64,000 nucleotides of DNA. It comes from Octopus vulgaris. Its lineage: Eukaryota. The position numbers were made by a program, and so were the translations under genes. Numbering within the stretch: the first letter of the stretch is position 1; each line of letters begins with the position of its first letter. The stretch lies in contig OX597821.1 in the NCBI GenBank assembly GCA_951406725.2, forward strand, positions 25,482,001-25,546,000, read 5' to 3'. The notes beneath the pieces were generated by a model. That model was not told the origin of the DNA and ran no database searches. It worked only from the letters and a program-made list of their open reading frames with translations. Shown piece by piece: positions 3,659-61,483 of the stretch.

Positions 3659-3659
<1 letters not shown>

Positions 3660-3987
3660 GGCATCTTGGGCAAGTGTCTTCTGCTATAGCCCCGGGCTGA
3701 CCAATGCCTTGTGAGTGGATTCGGTAGACGGAAACTGAAAGAAGTCTGTCGTATATATGTATATATATGTGTGTGTGTGTGTCTGTGTTTGTCCCTCTAG
3801 CATTGCTTGACAACCGATGCTGGTGTGTTTACGTCCCCGTCACTTAGCGGTTCGGCAAAAGAGACCGATAGAATAAGTACTGGGCTTACAAAGAATAAGT
3901 CCTGGGGTCGAGTTGCTCGACTAAAGGCGGTGCTCCAGCATGGCCGCAGTCAAATGACTGAAACAAGTAAAAGAGTAAAGAGAGAGT
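3659..3987 (+). mobile_element. SINE family A, 5'-truncated
   Basis: Near-identical to 58673-59020; starts directly after a (CA)n(TA)n tract. Confidence 0.9.
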
Positions 3988-6100
3988 ATATATAATATGC
4001 ATACATACTCATCATAAAAGCACAGATGATGAATGTGCAGTTAAGAAGTTTACTTCAAAACCATGTGACCTCAGGTTCAGTCCTACCATGGACTAGTGTC
4101 TTGTTCAACAAAAACAACAAACAAACCACTGCCTTATACACACACACACACATATACAGATATATATATGCGCACACACACACATATATACAAATGTAAA
4201 TCTGTGTGAGTGTGTCAATGTATGTATGTTTATATAACAAACTGAAAACCATGAAATAGTACCGGATTGCCAAAAACTCTAGGGACTAAATAACCACTGA
4301 ACTTGAAGGTGGTGCTATGATATAGCTGCTGTATAGCAAGGTAGGAAAAGGATAGGTTGAGCGGGTAAGCCTGTACATACTTCGGAAAGACGAACATCCC
4401 TGCCATACATAATAAAAGAACTGCCTGGTGGTACTGACCGCTCATGGAGTCGAGGACTAAGACAAGGAGCACCAAAACAAACCACATGGCAACATTGAAG
4501 ACAATGTTCTGCTTGGGTTACACTGCATCCTTCAGCTAGACTTTGTAGGGACAACAATTAATACCCACCTTGAACTGTTCAATGCCTTTTCCCCAAGACG
4601 GTGTCTATAGTAACTTGCAAAAGCTAGCAACAGAACAAAAATTGAAAACAACTCTTGCAAGTAGCCTTTGCGATTAGACAGCTATAAAAACAGCTAGGAT
4701 AAGTAACAGCAGTGGATAGACTTATTTCATATATGTTTATGTGTATACATGCACAAACATATACTTACACATATACATGTTATATACATGTATGTTACAT
4801 GTACATGAACACTATTTATTTGTGTATATGTATGTACACACACATACACATATATATGTGTGTGTGTGTGTACACAGACACATTTGAGTGCAAATGTTTA
4901 TGATGGATGCTGGCGTGGCTATGTGGTTACAGGTTACTGTGTGGAACCTTGGTCAAGTGCGTTCTATAGCCCCAGGTAAGTCAATTTTGTAGATGAAAAT
5001 TGAAGTTAATGTACAGGTGCATGATGTGCCACAGGTCAGGTGATGAAATGATTGCAGAGCAACGTGAAATGAAGTAGTTTGCTCAAGAACACAACACAAC
5101 GCTCAGTCTGGGAATCGAAACCATGATCTCGCAAGTGTGGGTGCAAACCCCTAACCACTAAGCCATATGCCTTCACATACACACATATGTAAGCAAGTGT
5201 TTGTATAACTTTTTGTCTTGATATTGTGTAATAGCGGTAAACAAGTGTCACCATCATAAAAATGGTACCTTCAATTAAAATAAGGGTGAGCTATTTACCT
5301 TACTTGGAAACAAATGAGGGTTGGCAACAGGAAGGAGGGCATTCAACCACAGAAATCCTATCTAACCCATGTGTTAAAATAGTGATATATAATAAACACA
5401 CATATATGTAATACACATACACACATGAGTAAGTGTATTTTAAAAAACCCACAGAGAACCACAATGTAGGCTATAGTACTCAATTACATATGGTAGAGCG
5501 AACTGAGATATTTGTTCATTCATATGCCATCATCTGAATAAACAAATATATCTCATGTTATCTATGTGTAATATAAATATATATGTGATGTAAAGATGTA
5601 TATTTATATATGATGAAAACATATGTAAAATTATACACACACACACACACACACACCTAGACGCAGGTGGAGCTGAATAGTTAAGTTCATTTTACAGCCA
5701 AGAGGTCTTGGGTTTGATCCCACTTCATGGCACTATGGTTAGTACTACTACTACTATTACTATAGCTGGAAACCAAGCAGAAATTCATTGGATGGATTGT
5801 ACCTTTAATTCAAAAGTCCAACTATGTCACACTAATTTCACTTGAGAATTACATTAAGAGTATGTCTGTGGAATACACAGCCACTTTTTACACTAATTTG
5901 ATATATAGCTCGTCCACTTAATTGAACAAATGTATTAGACATGTTCATACTTGACCCACAAACATTCACACTGACACACAAGCCGCTTCTCACACACACA
6001 TATGCACTCATGCACACGTCCACACTCACACACACAGAAACAAAAACTATCACATTAGGAGGAGGAGGTGTAGGAGGAGGAGGAGTTGGTGGATACTCAC

Positions 6101-10601: not shown

Positions 10602-10857
10602 CAACTCTGCAAACTTTTTCACTATTAAAGGATCCTTTTTATCTTTCTCTTTAACCACGGATTTTTAAAAGCCTGAAAGCTGTGTAAGCTACTTTTATCA
10701 GCCAACAAATTTGTTTTCCTGGTTTGATTCCTCGCTTGAAAGGTATATGTAAATGAACAAATATAATTATAAATGCAAATACATTTTACAGTGCAATCTT
10801 TTAAAAGACTGAACACTGGACCCCCAAAGTATGTAGACCCCAGATTGGGAAGTACTG
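10602..10857. mobile_element. Decayed hAT-type MITE
   Basis: 3' end GGACCCCCAAAGTATGTAGACCCCAGATTGGGAAGTACTG resembles Charlie-like MITE ends; left end poorly defined. Confidence 0.4.
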
Positions 10858-11330
10858 ATATACTGGTCATCAAATCTAAGTAGAGATTTCAAACTTAAAA
10901 TCTTCAAATCCACAGTCGAACCAATTCTACTATATGGCTCAGAAACTTGGACGTTATCAACAAAGTTTGAGGGGCAGTTGGATGGAACCTACACTTGCCT
11001 CCTTATGAGGGCTCAAAATCTCTTGTGGAAGCGTCATCCAACCGAAGTACAAATATATGGGAAATTACCACCTGTATCATCTCTTGTGAAAGGTAGGAGA
11101 GTCCAGTTTGCTGGACATTGTTGTAGAGCTAAAAACGAGGTAGTTTCTACTCTTCTCCTCTGGAAGCCATCTGCTTGCGATACCAGAGGGCTCACACTCT
11201 CCTACCCTGATGTAATCTCCAGGGATACAGGCATCCAGCAACAGGACCTCCGTAATGCTATGATGGACCATGACGTCTGGCGTAACATAGTAAATTCCAT
11301 TGTCACGACCACGGTCGAACAATGATGGTG
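10858..11330 (+). mobile_element. RTE-clade-like LINE 3' fragment (5'-truncated)
   Basis: Reads ...KLKIFKSTVEPILLYGSETWTL...LDGTYTCLLMRAQ...RRVQFAGHC...; LLYGSETW and FAGH are motifs of the post-RT region of RTE-type ORFs; ends in a (TGA)-type tail. Confidence 0.85.
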
Positions 11331-21974: not shown

Positions 21975-22172
21975 TGCCTGACTGGTCTCCATGCTGGTGG
22001 TACATAAAAAGCACCCACTACACTCACGGAGTGGTTGGAGTTAGGAAGGGAATCCATCTGTAGAAACTTTGCCAGACTGGAACCTGGTGCAGCCTCCTGG
22101 CTAGCCAGTCCTCAGTCAAAATGCCCAACCCATGCCAGCAAGGAAAGTGGACATTAAACAATGATGATGATG
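21975..22172 (+). mobile_element. SINE family C, truncated
   Basis: Family C body and (GAT)n tail. Confidence 0.85.
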
Positions 22173-22384
22173 GATAGATAGATAGATAGATAAACTGAAA
22201 CAAAGTTTGCCCCATGACTTTTGTGATTCTTTAGCGACATGAAACGTTAGATACAAAACAAAGTTTCGGTTTCAATAAAATTACCATATCCTCAACACAT
22301 ATTGAGCATTCCTCTCTCATTTGGCTGGCATAAACCAACATATGTATACACCTACACACACACACAAATATATATATATTTACA

Positions 22385-25361: not shown

Positions 25362-25487
25362 AAGGCAAAAGGGGGAGGCGGAGTGGGAGTCAGACAGAAG
25401 ACAGGTGAATTTAGACACGATGGGACATGAGGACAGCTTTGGTAAAATAGGCTTTACAGCTGCTATGTATATGTGCATATATATATA

Positions 25488-25762
25488 GGCCGACCAAAGT
25501 CTTGTGAGTGGATTTGGTAGACGGAAACTGAAAGAAGCCCGTCGTATATATATATATGTATGTGCGTGTATGTTTGTCCCCCTAGCATTGCTTGATAATT
25601 GATGCTGGTGTGTTTATGTCCCCGTCACTTAGCGGTTCGGCAAAAGAGACCGATAGAATAAGTACTGGACTTACAAAGAATAAGTCCTGGGGTCGAGTTG
25701 CTCGATTAAAAGGCGGTGCTCCAGTATGGCCGCAGTCAAAGGACTGAAACTAGTAAAAGAGT
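25488..25762 (+). mobile_element. SINE family A, 5'-truncated
   Basis: Matches the family A body and tail. Confidence 0.9.
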
Positions 25763-25771
25763 ATGTATGTA

Positions 25772-26909: not shown

Positions 26910-27255
26910 ACCTGTGCAGGTGGCAAGTAAAAAGCACCATCCAAACGTGGCCGAAGCACCATCCAAACATAGCCAACGCCAGCGCCGCCTTGACTGGCTT
27001 CTGTGCTGGTGGCACGTAAACAGCACCAACCGATCGTAGCCGCTGCCAGCTACCCCTGGCACCTATGCCAGTGGCACGTAAAGAGCACCCACTACACTCA
27101 CGGAGTGGTTGGCGTTAGGAAGGGCATCCAGCTGTAGAAACACTGCCAGATCAGACTGGAGCCTGGTGCAGCCTCCTGGCTTCCCAGACCCCGGTCAAAC
27201 CGTCCAACCTGTGCTAGCACGGAAAACGGACGTTAAACGATGATGATGATGATGA
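26910..27255 (+). mobile_element. SINE family C with internal tandem GTGCCGGTGGCACGTAAAAAGCACC modules and (GAT)n tail
   Basis: Three modules, then CACTCACGGAGTGGTTGGCGTTAGGAAGGGCATCCAG...GGACGTTAAACGATGATGAT. Confidence 0.88.
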
Positions 27256-27589
27256 TAACATATTTATGTACACACACATACATACACACACTAAAGCATG
27301 GCTGCCAGAAAAAGTAAGCAGTTGATGATGATGGTGCCTGTGTGTGTAAGTGTGTCATCATTATCTATCTTTGCTACAACCCTGCCAGTCTGAAGAGATG
27401 ACTAAAGGGAAGAGCGTCCATCCATAAAATGCTGCCCAAAACAGGACAGCATGAAAAAGCAGATTTATAATGCTGCTGTAGATGGTGTATACACTATATA
27501 TCAATGTTTCATATCTATATCAACACACACACACACAAACATGCGCTTATATGTGTATGCATACATATATTACATGTATGTGTATATAA

Positions 27590-28945: not shown

Positions 28946-29287
28946 TGCGTGGCATCTTGGGCAAGTGTCTTCTGGTATAGCCCCAGGCCGACCAAAGCCT
29001 TGTGAGTGGATTTGGTAGACGGAAAATGAAAGAAGCCTGTCGTATATATGTATGTGTGTGTATATGTTTGTGTGTCTGTGTTTGTCCCTCTAGCATTGCT
29101 TGACAACTGATGCTGGTGTGTTTACGTCCCAGTCACTTAGCGGTTCGGCGAAAGAGACCGATAGAATAAGTACTGGGCTTACAAAGAATAAGTCCCGGGG
29201 TTGATTTGCTCGACTAAAGGCAGTGCTCCAGCATGGCCGCAGTCAAATGACTGAAACAAGTAAAAGAGTAAAAGAGAGTAAAGAGTA
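28946..29287 (+). mobile_element. SINE family A, 5'-truncated
   Basis: Matches the family A body and tail. Confidence 0.9.
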
Positions 29288-29500: not shown

Positions 29501-29863
29501 AAAATATATGCTCTAAGAGTGTTAAGGAATGTATTTCACTAGAACAATTAATTATATGCTTACAAGGGCTAGATAGGCATCTCCAACTAGCAAGCCATAT
29601 TACTCCAGACTGAAGACGAGCAAAGACTCAGAAACTAGTCTCTGGATGCTGGCTTAACTGGGTGGGGGTGCTTGTCTCCCCCTTGTAAACATAAGGACAC
29701 AGGAAATGTGTCAAAATTGACAGGAAGCGGTGCTGCTTCCTAGGGCTAAATAGCAGTAGTATTATTCTCTTCATGAGACTGTCACATTAAGTTGACAGCA
29801 TACAACTACTTTATCGTATCACTACTGCAAATATTTCTCTAAGAGATTTAGAAATGTATTATT
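29501..29863 (+). mobile_element. Hammerhead-containing non-coding element (retrozyme-like), copy 1
   Basis: Homologous to 48248-48638. Imperfect terminal direct repeat (CTCTAAGAG at 29511 and 29837, period 326 nt). Multiple hairpins downstream of the ribozyme. Confidence 0.7.
29592..29655 (+). ncRNA. Type I hammerhead ribozyme motif (copy 1)
   Basis: Stem I TCCAGA(29604-09)/TCTGGA(29641-46); core CTGAAGA(29610-16); stem II GAG/CTC with loop CAAAGA and a C.A mismatch at its base; GAAAC-TA-GTC with predicted cleavage after C29640; TAC bulge and distal AAGCCA/TGGCTT helix. Confidence 0.85.
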
Positions 29864-29883
29864 TCTATATAAATATGTATATG

Positions 29884-41433: not shown

Positions 41434-41436
<3 letters not shown>

Positions 41437-41531
41437 CCTGGTGCAGCCCCTGGCTTCCCAGACTCCGGTCGAACCGTCCAACCCATGCTAGCGCGGAAAA
41501 CGGACGTTAAACGATGATGATGATGATGATG

Positions 41532-44444: not shown

Positions 44445-45655
44445 TATTAAGTCATCCCATAAATAATGCAGGTTTTTTTATTTTCAATTGCATAAACTAA
44501 ACTAGGGTAGTAATTTTACCTTGATCTTTTAGTGCACGCTTTGAAGAGTGCAGTTTGATTTTAACAGTTATTTTTTCAAAAAAGTGTCAAAGGAGCATAT
44601 TCGGCATATTTTGCTTTATGAGTTCAATAAAGACAACAATGCAATGGAAAGTGCGATGAATATTAATGTAGTACATGGGGATCCCACAATAAGCCTAAGC
44701 CAATGTCAACAGTGGTTCCAGAAATTCCAAGCTGGAAACTACAAACTAGAAGACAAGCCTTGTCCTAAAAGATCTGTAGAGCTCAATGAGGATGTCCTGC
44801 AAACTTTCGTGGAACAAAATCCCATTGTAACTGTTGAGGAACTAGCAGAGAAGCTTGGATTTGGTCATTCAACCATTCATTAACACCTGTGTGCCATTGG
44901 GAAAGTCAGCAAATTGGGTCAATGGGTTCCTCATAAAATTTCTGAGTCTAATCACATGTAGAGAGTGAACGTGTGCTCTTCTTTGCTGTCACATCTCACA
45001 AATGAACCTTTTTTTTGGGGACTGAATAGTGATTGGTGATGACAAATAAGTTCTCTATAAAAACGTCAAGCGCTAAAGACAGTGGGTAGGGAAAGAAGAA
45101 ACACTGGCACCCCAGGCTAAAGAAGGTCTTCACCCACGTGTTATCTGTTCGGTGGGATATGTATGAACGGTTTAGTCCACATAGAACTTTTAAACCCAAA
45201 CCCAACGATAACAAAGGAGATTGACTGTGAGCAGCTTGTGTAGCTTAGGTCAGTGCTAGAAGAAAAATGACTATCTTTGGTTTCAAGATGAAAGGTGTGC
45301 TTCCATCCGGATAATGCTTAGCCACATACAGTGAGGATGATATTAAGGCTGGACTGGAGCAGATTGAATGGAAATGATGCCTCACCCACAATATTTAGCA
45401 GACATTGCCTCACTTGATTATCCACATTCTTCAAAATCATTTGGACAGAAAAAATACAAATTCTGCAAACGAGGTCAGAACATTACTGGAGGAGTATTTT
45501 TCATCACGGTCAAGTGAATTTTAGAAGAAGGGTGTTTCAAGCCTACCAGACAGATGGAAGAGCATTATAGGAAATGAAGGAAAGTATATGTTAGATTTAA
45601 AAAAAATTTGCTTATCTTAATTATGAAAAATAAAAGAACTATAAAAATACCGCTC
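44445..45655 (+). mobile_element. Near-full-length defective mariner transposon
   Basis: ORF 44548-44883 is a mariner HTH domain (HIRHILLYEF...WFQKF...LED.P). Downstream are WVPH, IVIGDDK, FHPDNA*PHT and HPQYLADIASLDY (YSPDLAPSDY-like) motifs with stops and frameshifts. TA at 44445 precedes the left TIR. Confidence 0.92.
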
Positions 45656-47301: not shown

Positions 47302-48247
47302 TGCTTAACATGGCATAAAGAACTCTTTATTAAAGAACAGCTGATAAAACTCAACATTCTCAGATCGGTTCAAGCTAGGGAACATTAATTAATTATGCCA
47401 GGCAGCTAGAAGCAACACCACTAGTGGACTTTTATAACATTTTAAACTATATCCACAACTTAAACAGACAATCTACATGAATTTCCTCAGTAAATCTCTG
47501 ACTGGTTCTATCTACTAAGATGTGGTCTTGCAAGGTCACAGCTATCAATCAATATAATCTAATATATTGCTTTTCATTTCCATGGTTCCACATCTGCACA
47601 GTGACAATTATGGATTTGTTCTTTTTTACAAGTATAATATCCAGAAAAACAAACTGAAAACACAAACTAATCTCTGTGAAAAATATTAACTACAATACCA
47701 CAAAACAACCACAATTATAGTTAGCTCTCTCTAGTCACAGGCACTATTAATAGTTTAACATTTAGTAATCAACAATGTTAATTTTAGTTGTTGTTTAGTA
47801 ACAGCTTGATTCTGATTGAACAGAGACCTATGATTAAAGGTGTTACATGGGTAACCATCCTGTCATCTTTAAGAGTATCTAGGTCAACATTCACCCAACG
47901 TGTTGTTTCCTTACTGTGAAGATAGCCAAATCTCTTAACTCACACCTGACTACTATTTCTGGTTGTTTGAAAGACTAGCTGGAGTCTCTCCTGTAACTTA
48001 GCACTAAAAGTAATAGCAATTAACACATATGTATAACTATAATTAACACACACTGTTAATACTACAGTAAGTGAAACAACAAATATGCTTTGTAATGGGC
48101 ATGCTATCTTATGTATGATATCATGAAATTAATGCTTCAATGAACTGGAATTACAAATCTTCATCAAATTTAAATCGTCTTTTCTCATTCTTCCACCACA
48201 AACACCTTCACAAACGAACACTACCCTTTCCTGAAATGCTTTAATAT

Positions 48248-48638
48248 TTTAGAAATTCAATATTTCTTATTTTGATAATCAGTGAATAAACTTCACTGAA
48301 TATAAATATATACAATTACAAAGTCGAGGCAAATATCACCGGCTGACCTGTGTCTGCTACTCTAGGCCGATGAAGGACAACGATCCTGAAACACGGTGTC
48401 CCTAGATGCAGTTCCGGCAGCCGGGGGTGTTTATCTCCCCTTCGTATATGTATAAAAGGACACAGGGAAAAAATGTGTCAAAGCTATCAGGAGGCGTTCG
48501 ATGCCTCCTAGGGCTATACAGCGGTGGTGTACCCCCTACTGTCACGTTCTTGTTAGATTGACAGTATACAACCATTCTATCGCCCCACCACCGTACATGT
48601 CTCTACGAGAGATTTAGAAATTCAATATTTCTTATTTT
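48248..48638 (+). mobile_element. Hammerhead-containing non-coding element (retrozyme-like), copy 2
   Basis: Identical 26-bp direct repeat TTTAGAAATTCAATATTTCTTATTTT at 48248-48273 and 48613-48638 (period 365 nt). Same order of hairpins as copy 1. Confidence 0.75.
48339..48424 (+). ncRNA. Type I hammerhead ribozyme motif (copy 2)
   Basis: Stem I TCTAGG(48361-66)/CCTAGA(48401-06); core CCGATGA (U4C variant); stem II AGGA/TCCT with loop CAACGA; GAAAC-ACGGT-GTC with predicted cleavage after C48400; TAC bulge; distal helices CTGC/GCAG and CCGGCTG/CAGCCGG. Confidence 0.85.
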
Positions 48639-50382
48639 AATATATTGCTTTTCATTTTTGTCATATATAGCAGCAATGCAACAATGTTTCAACATAACTA
48701 TATTCCATGTTCCAACAGGTCCCAACTTAAGAATGAAACTAAGAAATACTTGGAAGAAACGTTTACTGTTTATCGATTTATCCATATCTGCTGTCTACAA
48801 CACTACAATCAGTACTAATAGGCCCAAGCCACTACTAGCCAAACAGTTATTGCGATCTTACTAAATCTTCGCTTCTTTCTAAGCCAATCTTTCCTCCATG
48901 ACACTAGTTATTAAACTGCTACAAGAAACCACAATAAGAATTAGTGTATCCTGCAATTAGCCTCACAACCTCATGTCTAGCCTCACCTTTTGTATAAAAA
49001 AAAAAATAAAAAGTGTTATATTTTTCATATACTTATTTTCAGCTCACTAGCTGTGGCTATGTCAGACATTTAGAGATGAAGGCATCTTTAAAATGAAAAA
49101 TGTCCTAAATCCTTATCTAAACAACTAAATGTTTATATAATGCCTTGTAGTGTGTTCAAGTGACCTAGGTTCAGATTATGTCAGTGTAACCCAAGCACTA
49201 GAGAGAAGCAGAGCAGACAGAAAGTAGTTTTAGACTGACTACAGTAGAAACCTTAATCTTCGACTTCCACAGAATCTGGCCACAGACAGTGATATATATA
49301 TATAAAGTGATTAGAGATTTACTAAGAGCAGAATATAGCTGTTAAAACTAGTTCAAACAAGAAGACTGGTAGGGTCATGTCACTGCTATATAATGTATGT
49401 AAATACAACACACTTTATAGACAATACAGGGAAATAGAGAAAAAAAAGTCAAGCAAAACTTTAATTTTATTCTACATTATTTCTTTCTATTTCTTTGCTA
49501 AACTAACAACAATGATAATAATAATAACAACAATTAATAACCAGAATGACAGTGGCAAATACAGCTTATGGCCACAGTTTTACTAATTACCCTCCCTCCA
49601 GTATGATCTTTTCATCCTATTTTGGGTAATCTTATTTCAAAGAACTTCCCACCATCCAAATTCAACATTCTAAGGACATACAAAATGGAAAGACAGATAA
49701 TAGAGATGGTGGTAATCAGGAAAACCATACTGAGATAGATATACAAAAAGATAGGAAGGGAAAAAAAGAGACAGACAAGGTCCTTCATGTAACAGAAAAT
49801 TATAGTTGTAAAAAAATTGCTGGGATTAGAATCTAGATGGGAGAGGAGCCATGAGGGGTCAAAGTTCCAACACTAGTATTGTGCTGTATCTGGGACAAAA
49901 GGCATTTAACTCTAATAGTATTACATACATACCTACATATAGGTACACCTTGTACTTCTAAGTACAATAGAATGTTAGTGGTGAAGTACAGTGGGAGCTG
50001 GTGAAAAGACCTTAGTAACTGACTGTAGCCAGCAATGGTAAGTTCACATTCTCCCATGGATCAACCTGCAATAGACTGGTATCCTGTGCAAGAGAGATAT
50101 CTCTCAGTAGAACAGCACAGCATCTTGAAAAACTGAGATAAACTTCCTGTAACATTGGTAAATAAATGAAAGGAGAGAAAGATGATGTTGTAGGTTCATA
50201 ATCCAATAGAAGTAGCTCATTTTGTTTTATTTTCTGTAGACTATTCATATAATTTTTGCAAACTGCAGACATTGAGAGAATCCCAAGATGAGAAATCGGA
50301 AGAAAACTCTATAGAACAAGTAACAAGAATGGTAAGATTGGTAAACATTTGTTTAAGAGATAATAGTAAACTTTATACTTAC

Positions 50383-53912: not shown

Positions 53913-54280
53913 CATCATCATTGTTCGACCGTGATCGAGACAATGGAATTTACCATGCTATGCCAGACTTCACGGTCCATCATAGCATTACGGAGGTCCT
54001 GTTGCTGGATGCCTGTATCCCTGGAGATTACATCAGGGTAGGAGAGTGTGCGTCCTCTGGTATTGCGAGTAGATGGCTTCCAGAGGAAAAGAGTAGAAAT
54101 TACCTCTTTTTCAGCTCTACAACAATGTCCAGCAAACTGGACTCTCCTACCTTTCACAAGAGATGACACAGGTGGTAGTTTCCCATATATTTGCATTTTG
54201 GTTGGATGGCGCTTCCACGGGAGATTTTGAGCTCTCATAAGGAGGCGAGTGTAGGTTCCATCCAACCGCCTCTCAAGCCT
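53913..54280 (-). mobile_element. RTE-clade-like LINE 3' fragment, same family as 10858-11330
   Basis: ORF 53918-54265 differs at about 19 of 114 aa from ORF 10978-11325; (TGA)n tail; 9-bp target-site duplication TGAATTCTT at 53904-53912 and 54283-54291. Confidence 0.9.
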
Positions 54281-54339
54281 AGTGAATTCTTAGTGAACCA
54301 AGCAGGTTTTCAAATATTTGAAATGCAATGTATACCCTA

Positions 54340-56615: not shown

Positions 56616-56873
56616 GCCCTCGTGCCGGTGGCACATAAAAAACACCATCCGTTCGTGGCCGTTTGCCAGCTCTGGCTGGCACCAGTGCGGGTGGCACGTA
56701 AAAAGCACCCACTACACTCACGGAGTGGTTGGCGTTAGGAAGGGCATCCAGCCGTAGAAACACTGCCAGATTTGACTGGGCCTGATGAAGCCTTCTGGCT
56801 TCACAGACCCCAGCAGAACCGTCCAACCCATGCTAGCATGGAAAACGGACGCTAAATGATGATGATGATGATG
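56616..56873 (+). mobile_element. SINE family C
   Basis: Two modules plus body and (GAT)n tail, embedded between microsatellites. Confidence 0.88.
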
Positions 56874-56882
<9 letters not shown>

Positions 56883-58602: not shown

Positions 58603-58767
58603 GGCGCAGGAGTGGCTGTGTGGTAAGTAGCTTGCTAACCAACCACATGGTTCCGGGTTCAGTCCCACTGCATGGCATCTTGGGCAAGTGTCTTCTGCTA
58701 TAGCCCCGGGCCGACCAATGCCTTGTGAGTGGATTTGGTAGACGGAAACTGAAAGAAGCCCGTCGTA

Positions 58768-58807
<40 letters not shown>

Positions 58808-59020
58808 TGCATTTGTGTATATGTTTGTCCCCCTAGCATTGCTTGACAACTGATGCTGGTGTGTTTACGTCCCCGTTACTTAGCGGTTCGGCAAAAGAGA
58901 CCGATAGAATAAGTACTGGGCTTACAAAGAATAAGTCCCGGGGTCGATTTCCTCGACTAAAGGCGGTGCTCCAGCATGGCCGCAGTCAAATGACTGAAAC
59001 AAGTAAAAAGAGAGTAAAAA
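58603..59020 (+). mobile_element. Full-length tRNA-headed SINE, family A (CORE-like centre, internal microsatellite)
   Basis: A box GTGGCTGTGTGG, B box GGGTTCAGTCCC, then CTTGGGCAAGT; internal (TA)n; 3' GACTGAAACAAGTAAAAGAG tail. Several near-identical copies in the window. Confidence 0.9.
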
Positions 59021-60622: not shown

Positions 60623-61483
60623 TACAAGTTGTCAATAGGTATCTGGACTGTTGCCATAGTAACGAAGCTAAAGCACACAGAGTGAAGCTGCTCAGCAAAG
60701 ATTGACTTTGAAATCTGCCGTGTATATGTACTAAGTTTTAATGTTCTAGCTCACTTTCGCTGTTTATGGCAGTGCTTGAAAGGAAGGTGTGTAGTGTGTG
60801 ATTGTCACAGTGACCATAACAGAGAAAGTTGTCATGGCGATACCTGCTCAGAGGCCTATGCAAAGTTGCAGAAAGTGTATGGAAAGGAGTGTATCAGCCG
60901 CACAAAAGTGTAGGAGTGGTTCAGACGTTTTCAAGATGGTCAAAAACATGTTGATATTGAGGAACGTTCTGGGAGACATGCAACCAGCAGAACTGAGAAA
61001 AACATCGCAGATGTGCATGCAGTCATGAGGGGAACTTGTCAAATCACCATCCATGAGTTATCAGAGGATGCGCAGATTATTTACGGTTCAGTTCCGTCCA
61101 TTATCACTGATGATTTGGGTACAAGATGCTTGTCTGCCAAGTTTGTGCCAAAATGCTTTCAGCTGACCAAAAGGACATTCAGGTTTCAGTTGCACAAGAT
61201 CTTGATTGTGCTGAAAACGATAAAAAATTTTCAAAACCTTGCATAGGCCTCTGAGCAGGCATCACCAAGCTTTAGGCAAAATTTGATGGAGATTCTCTGC
61301 CACGATCAATGCAACAATCACACGCTACACACCTTCCTTCAAAGCCCTGCTGTAAACAGTGGAAGTGAGCTAGAGCGTTAAAACTTGGTTTGCATACACA
61401 GCAGAGTTCAAGCAGCTTCACTCTATCTGCTTTAGCTTTGTTACTATGGCAACAATCCAGATACTTATTGATCAGACCACATG
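60623..61483 (+). mobile_element. Mariner-derived element with long (about 190 bp) inverted ends
   Basis: Remnant KLQKVYG...EWFRRFQDG...ERSGR...ITIHELSE...LSAKFVPK. Left TATCTGGACTGTTGCCATAGTAAC...GAAGGTGTGTAG matches the reverse complement of right CTACACACCTTC...GTTACTATGGCAACAATCCAGATA. Confidence 0.85.

Follow-up and report, generated by a model that had tools for sequence, protein, structure and literature searches.

A hammerhead-bearing, retrozyme-like repeat family in the Octopus vulgaris genome with an insertion footprint like that of Penelope-like elements

Described systems closest to the octopus unit

Animal non-LTR retrozymes have been described from mussel (350–390 bp) and axolotl (330–350 bp) (Cervera and de la Pena 2020, PMC7229834). 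How they move is an open question, and Penelope-like elements (PLEs) have been proposed as helpers from co-occurrence (PMC7229834) and from pLTR homology (Li et al. 2026, bioRxiv 10.64898/2026.07.22.740005). PLEs are described as leaving partial tandems together with a truncated copy in inverted orientation and a tail of 30–40 bp on one side (PMC8557442, including the legend to its Fig. 2). AT-rich DNA is cleaved on both strands by the PLE protein, cDNA synthesis begins at a pair of sites inside the RNA, and these two sites delimit the tail; in that account, two fixed internal 3′ ends, one per inverted arm, constitute a PLE signature (PMC11167929).

The repeat unit analysed here was found in a 64,000-nucleotide stretch of Octopus vulgaris DNA (contig OX597821.1, positions 25,482,001–25,546,000 of assembly GCA_951406725.2; hereafter, the window). 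Like the retrozymes described in PMC7229834, it has a type I hammerhead, a length of ~360 nt, head-to-tail repeats, a GC content below 50%, no ORF, target duplications longer than 4 bp and coexisting PLEs. Unlike those retrozymes, which form long arrays, the octopus units mostly occur as dispersed partial tandems with inverted arms, and their young lineages, known here from DNA, have fixed U4C or U3-A8 cores. They also have two fixed 3′ ends, a feature that is not described in the portions of PMC7229834 drawn on here. The likeness to Neptune and Poseidon PLEs (PMC8557442 and PMC11167929) extends to the partial tandems, the inverted truncated copy, the one-sided tail located between two reverse transcriptase (RT) start sites, the AT-rich targets and the type I ribozyme, whereas the octopus unit carries no RT or GIY-YIG ORF, has a tail of 55–59 nt instead of 30–40 and possesses a ribozyme of canonical size instead of the minimal type of PLEs. 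Chlamys MRC1 is also a non-autonomous, head-to-tail PLE passenger, but the non-autonomous elements of Chlamys, as portrayed in the relevant part of PMC8557442, generally have 3′ sequence in common with an autonomous partner and mostly have no canonical hammerhead. Li et al. (2026) arrived at the same conclusion of PLE dependence for vertebrate retrozymes, arguing from co-occurrence and Xenopus pLTR homology in a set of 35 genomes that holds no mollusc; the octopus case rests instead on the insertion footprint, homology to a pLTR having been sought without success among the Neptune-like loci fetched.

The unit lies within the 150–450 bp range that, with head-to-tail repeats and a type I hammerhead, delimits animal non-LTR retrozymes. 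Its GC contents (44 and 39%) and longest ATG frame (57 aa) are those of a non-coding retrozyme without LTRs. Judged from sequence, the octopus family appears to be a new member of this group. A literature search, with Repbase and Dfam entries outside its scope, found no cephalopod report of such retrozymes, and ribozymes and retrozymes are unmentioned in the text and one supplement of the octopus repeat annotation PMC13282606.

The unit in the window and its lineages

The window element occupies positions 48248–48635 and consists of a 26-nt remnant of an upstream unit and one unit, with an 8-bp target-site duplication outside (Table 1). An earlier note on this DNA had described a period of 365 nt bounded by an identical 26-bp direct repeat, which is exact at 48248–48273 and 48613–48638. 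The start that it gave for the element stands, and the end moves from 48638 to 48635 because the final 3 bases of the right repeat belong to the 8-bp duplication. Since this duplication is separate from the 26-bp repeat, the latter is element sequence, namely a truncated tandem remnant, and is ruled out as a target-site duplication. The same note had derived the repeat from slightly more than one pass along a circular RNA; the extra pass holds, and the circular template is what we infer, although an uncleaved tandem transcript also fits. The type I hammerhead layout that it had proposed was mapped throughout, with stem I at 48361–48366/48401–48406, stem II at 48374–48387, a near-palindromic stem III and a predicted cut after 48400. 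The fixed series of hairpins was likewise present; the unit fold is −122.5 kcal/mol (z = −6.46), and none of 100 shuffles was equally stable. A diverged homologue does exist near 29.5 kb, at 29526–29868 and not at 29501–29863 as first given. Just upstream of the start of its homology, a 9-bp sequence (29511–29519) matches the 3′ part of this copy (29837–29845), possibly as a deleted tandem remnant or by chance.

Table 1. Features of the two window copies and positions of the intact Neptune-like PLEs
Feature	Position	Strand	Remark
Left target-site duplication, 8 bp	48240..48247	+	identical to 48636-48643
5′-truncated remnant of upstream tandem unit (unit positions 340-365)	48248..48273	+	other loci: same place, many remnant lengths
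Lineage-B unit, positions 1-362, ending at distal fixed 3′ end	48274..48635	+	
Long rod prolonging stem I, hammerhead at its tip	48306..48452	+	ends approximate
Type I hammerhead with UAC bulge, stem I, core CCGAUGA (U4C; 48367-73) and CAACGA-looped stem II	48358..48406	+	activity predicted
Two conserved hairpins, GACACA/TGTGTC and AGGAGGC arm	48458..48514	+	candidate protein-binding module
Long-range helix, 48521-29 with 48586-94, around CTGTCA/TGACAG hairpin and internal 3′ end	48521..48594	+	
Internal fixed 3′ end (unit position 307)	48573..48580	+	putative second RT start site; 28/63 ends, 16/35 in second set
55-nt tail from the internal to the distal fixed 3′ end	48581..48635	+	
Right target-site duplication, 8 bp	48636..48643	+	identical to left one
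Lineage-A copy (older), 5′-truncated, ending at distal site beside (TA)n	29526..29868	+	
Lineage-A hammerhead: canonical CUGAAGA core, C-A mismatch at stem II base, ACUAGU stem III	29604..29646	+	
Intact Neptune-like PLEs	L120:1745-4087, L235:2285-4636, L233:1865-4216		

A search of the genome (2.8 Gb) with the unit yielded 1,873 first-look candidates, and the 40 that were scored were full units with 95–98% identity. The common hairpin pattern had 1,206 exact genome matches versus none for the control. The superfamily is dispersed genome-wide and comprises at least five lineages, about 63–80% alike, with more than 1,200 copies. We named the lineages A to E, B being that of the window copy and A that of the 29.5-kb copy; A, B and C are mutually 69–77% alike. 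Identity to the column majority is 98.5–98.7% in B, 98.6% in D, 95% in C, 93.5% in E and 93% in A. All lineages share the same order of features (a hammerhead-tipped rod, two hairpins, and the internal 3′ end with the tail), and the unit period is 355–365 across the family. Copies are spread over most large contigs and contain at most about three units each. Seven two-ribozyme tandems, which are candidate source loci, and no triples were found among the first 100 listed of 459 hammerhead matches.

Lineage B was also present in contigs of sequencing runs from three organisms, two of which share the left junction of the window insertion. In one sequencing run, which is RNA only by presumption, contigs cover the unit and its flanks alike, and no empty site was seen. 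At another locus (L087), older lineage-B pieces (1498–1873 and 5519–5888) are located between units of a ~4-kb tandem repeat with open frames of 413–472 aa. The window itself contains abundant interspersed repeats at 3659–3979, 25452–25764, 28950–29272 and 58673–59015 and a second abundant interspersed family at 22082–22178, 27161–27257, 41435–41531 and 56780–56876, both of which we take to be SINE-like. Frames at 10837–11325 (+) and 53918–54289 (−) presumably resemble the ends of RTE-type LINEs, and those at 44545–44883 (+) and 60914–61246 (+) presumably resemble mariner transposase fragments.

Hammerhead core, stem III and the fold

Rfam returned no hammerhead match in the window or in short stretches of it, and the best 30 genome matches of RF00163 all belonged to other families and none to this unit. 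The comparison with Rfam Hammerhead_1 proposed in the earlier note thus leaves the window hammerhead below threshold, and its identification rests on motif and structure.

The U4C change had been regarded as a sign that the window copy was crippled. Canonical CUGA was found in only 12 of the 459 hammerheads matching the exact pattern, so U4C is the amplifying state of lineage B, and its fixation throughout the lineage rules out private damage of the window copy. The core dinucleotide of lineage B among the first 100 matches listed was CG in 95, TG in 3 and CA in 2, a split that CpG decay would be expected to produce. U4C was found in 15/15 copies of B and U3-A8 in 14/14 copies of D, and both of these youngest lineages have therefore fixed non-canonical cores. 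Measured against the type I definition of CUGANGA and GAAA in the core, an NUH site and three helices open at stem I, the core is canonical in A (14/14 copies), C (12/14) and E (13/15), and the basal pair of stem II is a C-A mismatch in A (10/14) and C (12/14). Both U4C and U3-A8 are known hammerhead variants (PMC3088659 and PMC4209133), and U4C is described as lowering in vitro activity while still permitting viroid infectivity (PMC3088659). Hammerheads with U4C are commonly scored as damaged, and searches built on CUGA miss them; these data show that such a hammerhead can be the one that amplifies. The window copy is a dead end only through its single ribozyme, with which it is unable to release unit-length RNA by itself.

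Stem III varies in length and sequence and is self-complementary in each of six variants, so that the palindromic character noticed before is kept in all lineages sampled. Its duplexes are predicted at −4.6 to −13.3 kcal/mol, and the monomer hairpins are unstable; in a natural tandem, the double-hammerhead form is predicted to be ~6 kcal/mol more stable under a rough constraint. The dimer logic of such palindromic stems III has been described (PMC4209133).

An automated pair test on minimum-free-energy structures was not significant (102/190 versus 151/302 pairs kept; p = 0.46) because helices and alignments slip at indels. Within indel-free helices (54 pairs), pairing was kept in 42 of 50 differences between A, B and C versus 100 of 180 within-lineage changes (p = 2.4e-4, with helices picked by eye and comparisons that are not independent), and a double compensatory change was found in 13 of the 54 pairs. 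In a 50-copy alignment, the covariation score, which the relatedness of the copies inflates, was 0.277 versus 0.190 in shuffled alignments (0/500 reached it) and 0.06–0.10 when slid. The compensatory changes in the hammerhead stems and palindromic stem III across lineages ~63–80% alike suggest selection on the ribozyme fold. The pairing-preserving differences first seen between two copies accordingly reappear as covariation between lineages in these hand-picked helices. One of them, the AGGAGGC/GCCTCCT swap, is a minority variant only, most lineage-B copies having a G-U pair there. The earlier description of a structured, non-coding, retrozyme-like mobile RNA agrees with the covariation between lineages, the palindromic stem III and the absence of attachment to a PLE ORF.

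Insertion footprint, template and candidate helpers

The insertion footprint was determined from lineage-B copies among the 1,206 pattern matches, restricted to the first 100 of the listing and taken in genome order with an 85% identity filter; 42 insertions passed, two of which represent one local duplicate. Among their 63 3′ ends, 59 are located at two fixed sites (31 at ~362 and 28 at ~307). Seventeen of the 21 two-armed inverted insertions have one end of each kind, four have one irregular end, and none ends twice at the same site; for the regular ones, 17/17 mixed corresponds to p = 8e-6. A partly overlapping set of 24 insertions has 31/35 ends at the two sites (16/35 at the internal one) and a (TA)n flank beside 23/35 ends, and in 15 of these insertions a unit end is joined head-to-tail to a unit start with no ORF between. 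Lineage D gave 5/7 mixed and no same-site two-armed insertions. In the best-match sets of lineages A and C, 27/35 and 30/33 ends, respectively, lie at the two sites; of the 19 two-armed insertions in these sets, three end twice at the same site, and two of these three represent one duplicated locus. Target duplications of 5–11 bp occur at several non-(TA)n loci and one of 8 bp at the window copy. The inverted arms are 5′-truncated, and partial tandems, a one-sided tail and an AT-rich target accompany them, as in PLE-mobilised elements.

This insertion layout specifically identifies Penelope-like machinery, and the unit family is very probably a PLE-mobilised retrozyme. A point against the PLE partnership is the 55-nt tail, which is longer than the usual 30–40 bp of PLEs. 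A SINE moved by LINEs would share the short, non-coding, 5′-truncated form and the variable duplications, as would a satellite or a rolling-circle DNA repeat, the hammerhead being incidental in each case; fragments that we take to be of LINEs are frequent nearby. Yet the unit does not itself end in poly(A) or in a simple-repeat tail, its dispersal in short runs over most large contigs does not suit such repeats, and the placement of the two fixed ends on opposite arms is described as a PLE signature, which together make this origin extremely improbable. As a separate observation, 12 of 52 arms terminate close to the rod base, at unit positions 164–186 (window about 48437–48459), in a hand count whose mild excess is confounded by the choice of loci; these stops could reflect RT stalling.

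Intact Neptune-like PLEs with ORFs of 781–784 aa for RT and GIY-YIG were identified in the same genome (Table 1). They form three families that are 65–72% identical, each with a CX3CxxC linker, which is also reported from Nematis (PMC8557442). Pfam confirmed the RT and GIY-YIG domains on the 781-aa ORF, with the RT score just below cut-off; these sequence features point to Neptune-type elements. Each has an overlapping upstream ORF of ~320–480 aa, and the one tested had no Pfam match. Two of the three families contain clear minimal U3-A8 hammerhead-like motifs with a palindromic stem III. Family N1 inserts in (TA)n and has two ends ~40 nt apart; of the 12 scored, duplicates included, 9 have one end and 3 the other. 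This sample comes from the best 150 of 6,136 GIY-YIG candidates, so some PLE families were missed.

Attachment to a Penelope RT/GIY-YIG ORF, which the earlier note had named as evidence against its reading, was found at none of 173 unit loci (some overlapping) or within the window, in the sense that no unit occupies the pLTR position. The unit also has no detectable common sequence with the Neptune-like pLTRs of the loci fetched, in a PLE family sample that is incomplete. The copies might be ordinary solo pLTRs, i.e. 5′-truncated 3′ ends of an autonomous PLE yet to be found: their footprint is exactly PLE-like, the autonomous family may be among those missed in scoring, and one unit locus (L148) adjoins a Neptune fragment. 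This origin is nevertheless very unlikely considering the unit-to-unit joins without an ORF in 15/24 insertions. Moreover, a Neptune protein match lies near only 4 of the 173 loci, none of them in pLTR position: one was selected out of a PLE locus, in two the match is several hundred bases distant, and the fourth is L148. The unit profile matches in PLE loci are set off from the PLE by (TA)n, and the Neptune pLTRs have different, minimal ribozyme-like motifs. Same-strand motif pairs 2.5–7 kb apart were considered as pLTR-ORF-pLTR arrangements, and the four fetched lacked any Neptune match and were either local duplicates or neighbours with no relationship. At L148 (512–2210, minus strand; wider context in L304), a lineage-C tandem directly abuts an inverted fragment and a truncated Neptune 3′ half. 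The join sits between (TA)n runs at this single such locus, which may be either a chimera produced by template switching or a pair of insertions into one AT-rich target.

Regarding the template, 35 arms extend as far as the cut site; 31 of them continue beyond it, and the other 4 end no more than 5 nt from it, where about 2 would be expected (p = 0.15). The template was thus a circle or an uncleaved multimer, and these few stops do not support a cleaved linear monomer as the main template. Across 70 insertions, divergence is 2.1% between tandem units, 2.0% between opposite arms and 5.0% between separate loci. All pieces of one insertion therefore derive from one monomer variant, a single source that a circle and an uncleaved young tandem explain equally well. 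An apparent lack of common variants in tandem units relative to arms in a first pass (5/121 versus 18/161) was gone on full comparison (p = 0.73).

For the complete mechanism, we lean towards a non-autonomous retrozyme copied in trans from circular RNA by a Neptune-type PLE RT. Two-ribozyme loci would be transcribed and self-cleave, aided by pairing of the palindromic stems III, and the monomer would be ligated into a circle. The PLE protein would bind the conserved 3′ hairpins and cut both strands of an AT-rich target, and priming would start one cDNA from position 307 and its counterpart from 362. Each cDNA would run a variable distance round the template, giving truncated tandems joined as an inverted pair. 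With their weak cores, lineages B (U4C), D (U3-A8) and A and C (C-A at the base of stem II) would cleave more slowly, and this could shield the template. A bolder and rather doubtful extension is that the circular ribozyme RNA parasitises Neptune by shape alone. In that case, a non-homologous 3′ multi-hairpin module would recruit a PLE protein acting as a dimer, which would prime each strand of the target at a different site of the same circle, and the youngest lineages would have independently tuned down the ribozyme (U4C and U3-A8), keeping the circle intact.

The same element and PLE mobilisation could also operate on an uncleaved linear tandem transcript, with the ribozyme attenuated or dispensable and no circle. 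The read-through of the cut site and the equal tandem and arm divergence fit this equally well, and non-canonical cores are fixed in both youngest lineages. In PLE insertion in vitro, ribozyme mutants are described as having no effect and uncleaved RNA as the main substrate (PMC11167929), and 8 of 9 Xenopus dimers are stated not to have cleaved (Li et al. 2026). The compensatory changes that keep the hammerhead stems and palindromic stem III oppose it, and short arrays would presumably erode by 5′ truncation unless a circle regenerates their length; we hold a linear template to be unlikely.

Thousands of candidate copies record the footprint of the PLE reaction on a retrozyme, and intact helper candidates reside in the same genome. 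Footprint and helpers together yield exact predictions for in vitro work, namely RT starts at unit positions 307 and 362, and the unit offers a compact RNA for mapping the features recognised by a telomerase-like reverse transcriptase of the PLE type.

A second, unrelated hammerhead family was encountered at L189–L211 (e.g. L192:1501-1542, minus strand), with scores near or above the RF00163 cut-off. CCGA (U4C) was seen by eye in 5 of its 30 best loci, and some members are located in inverted repeats.
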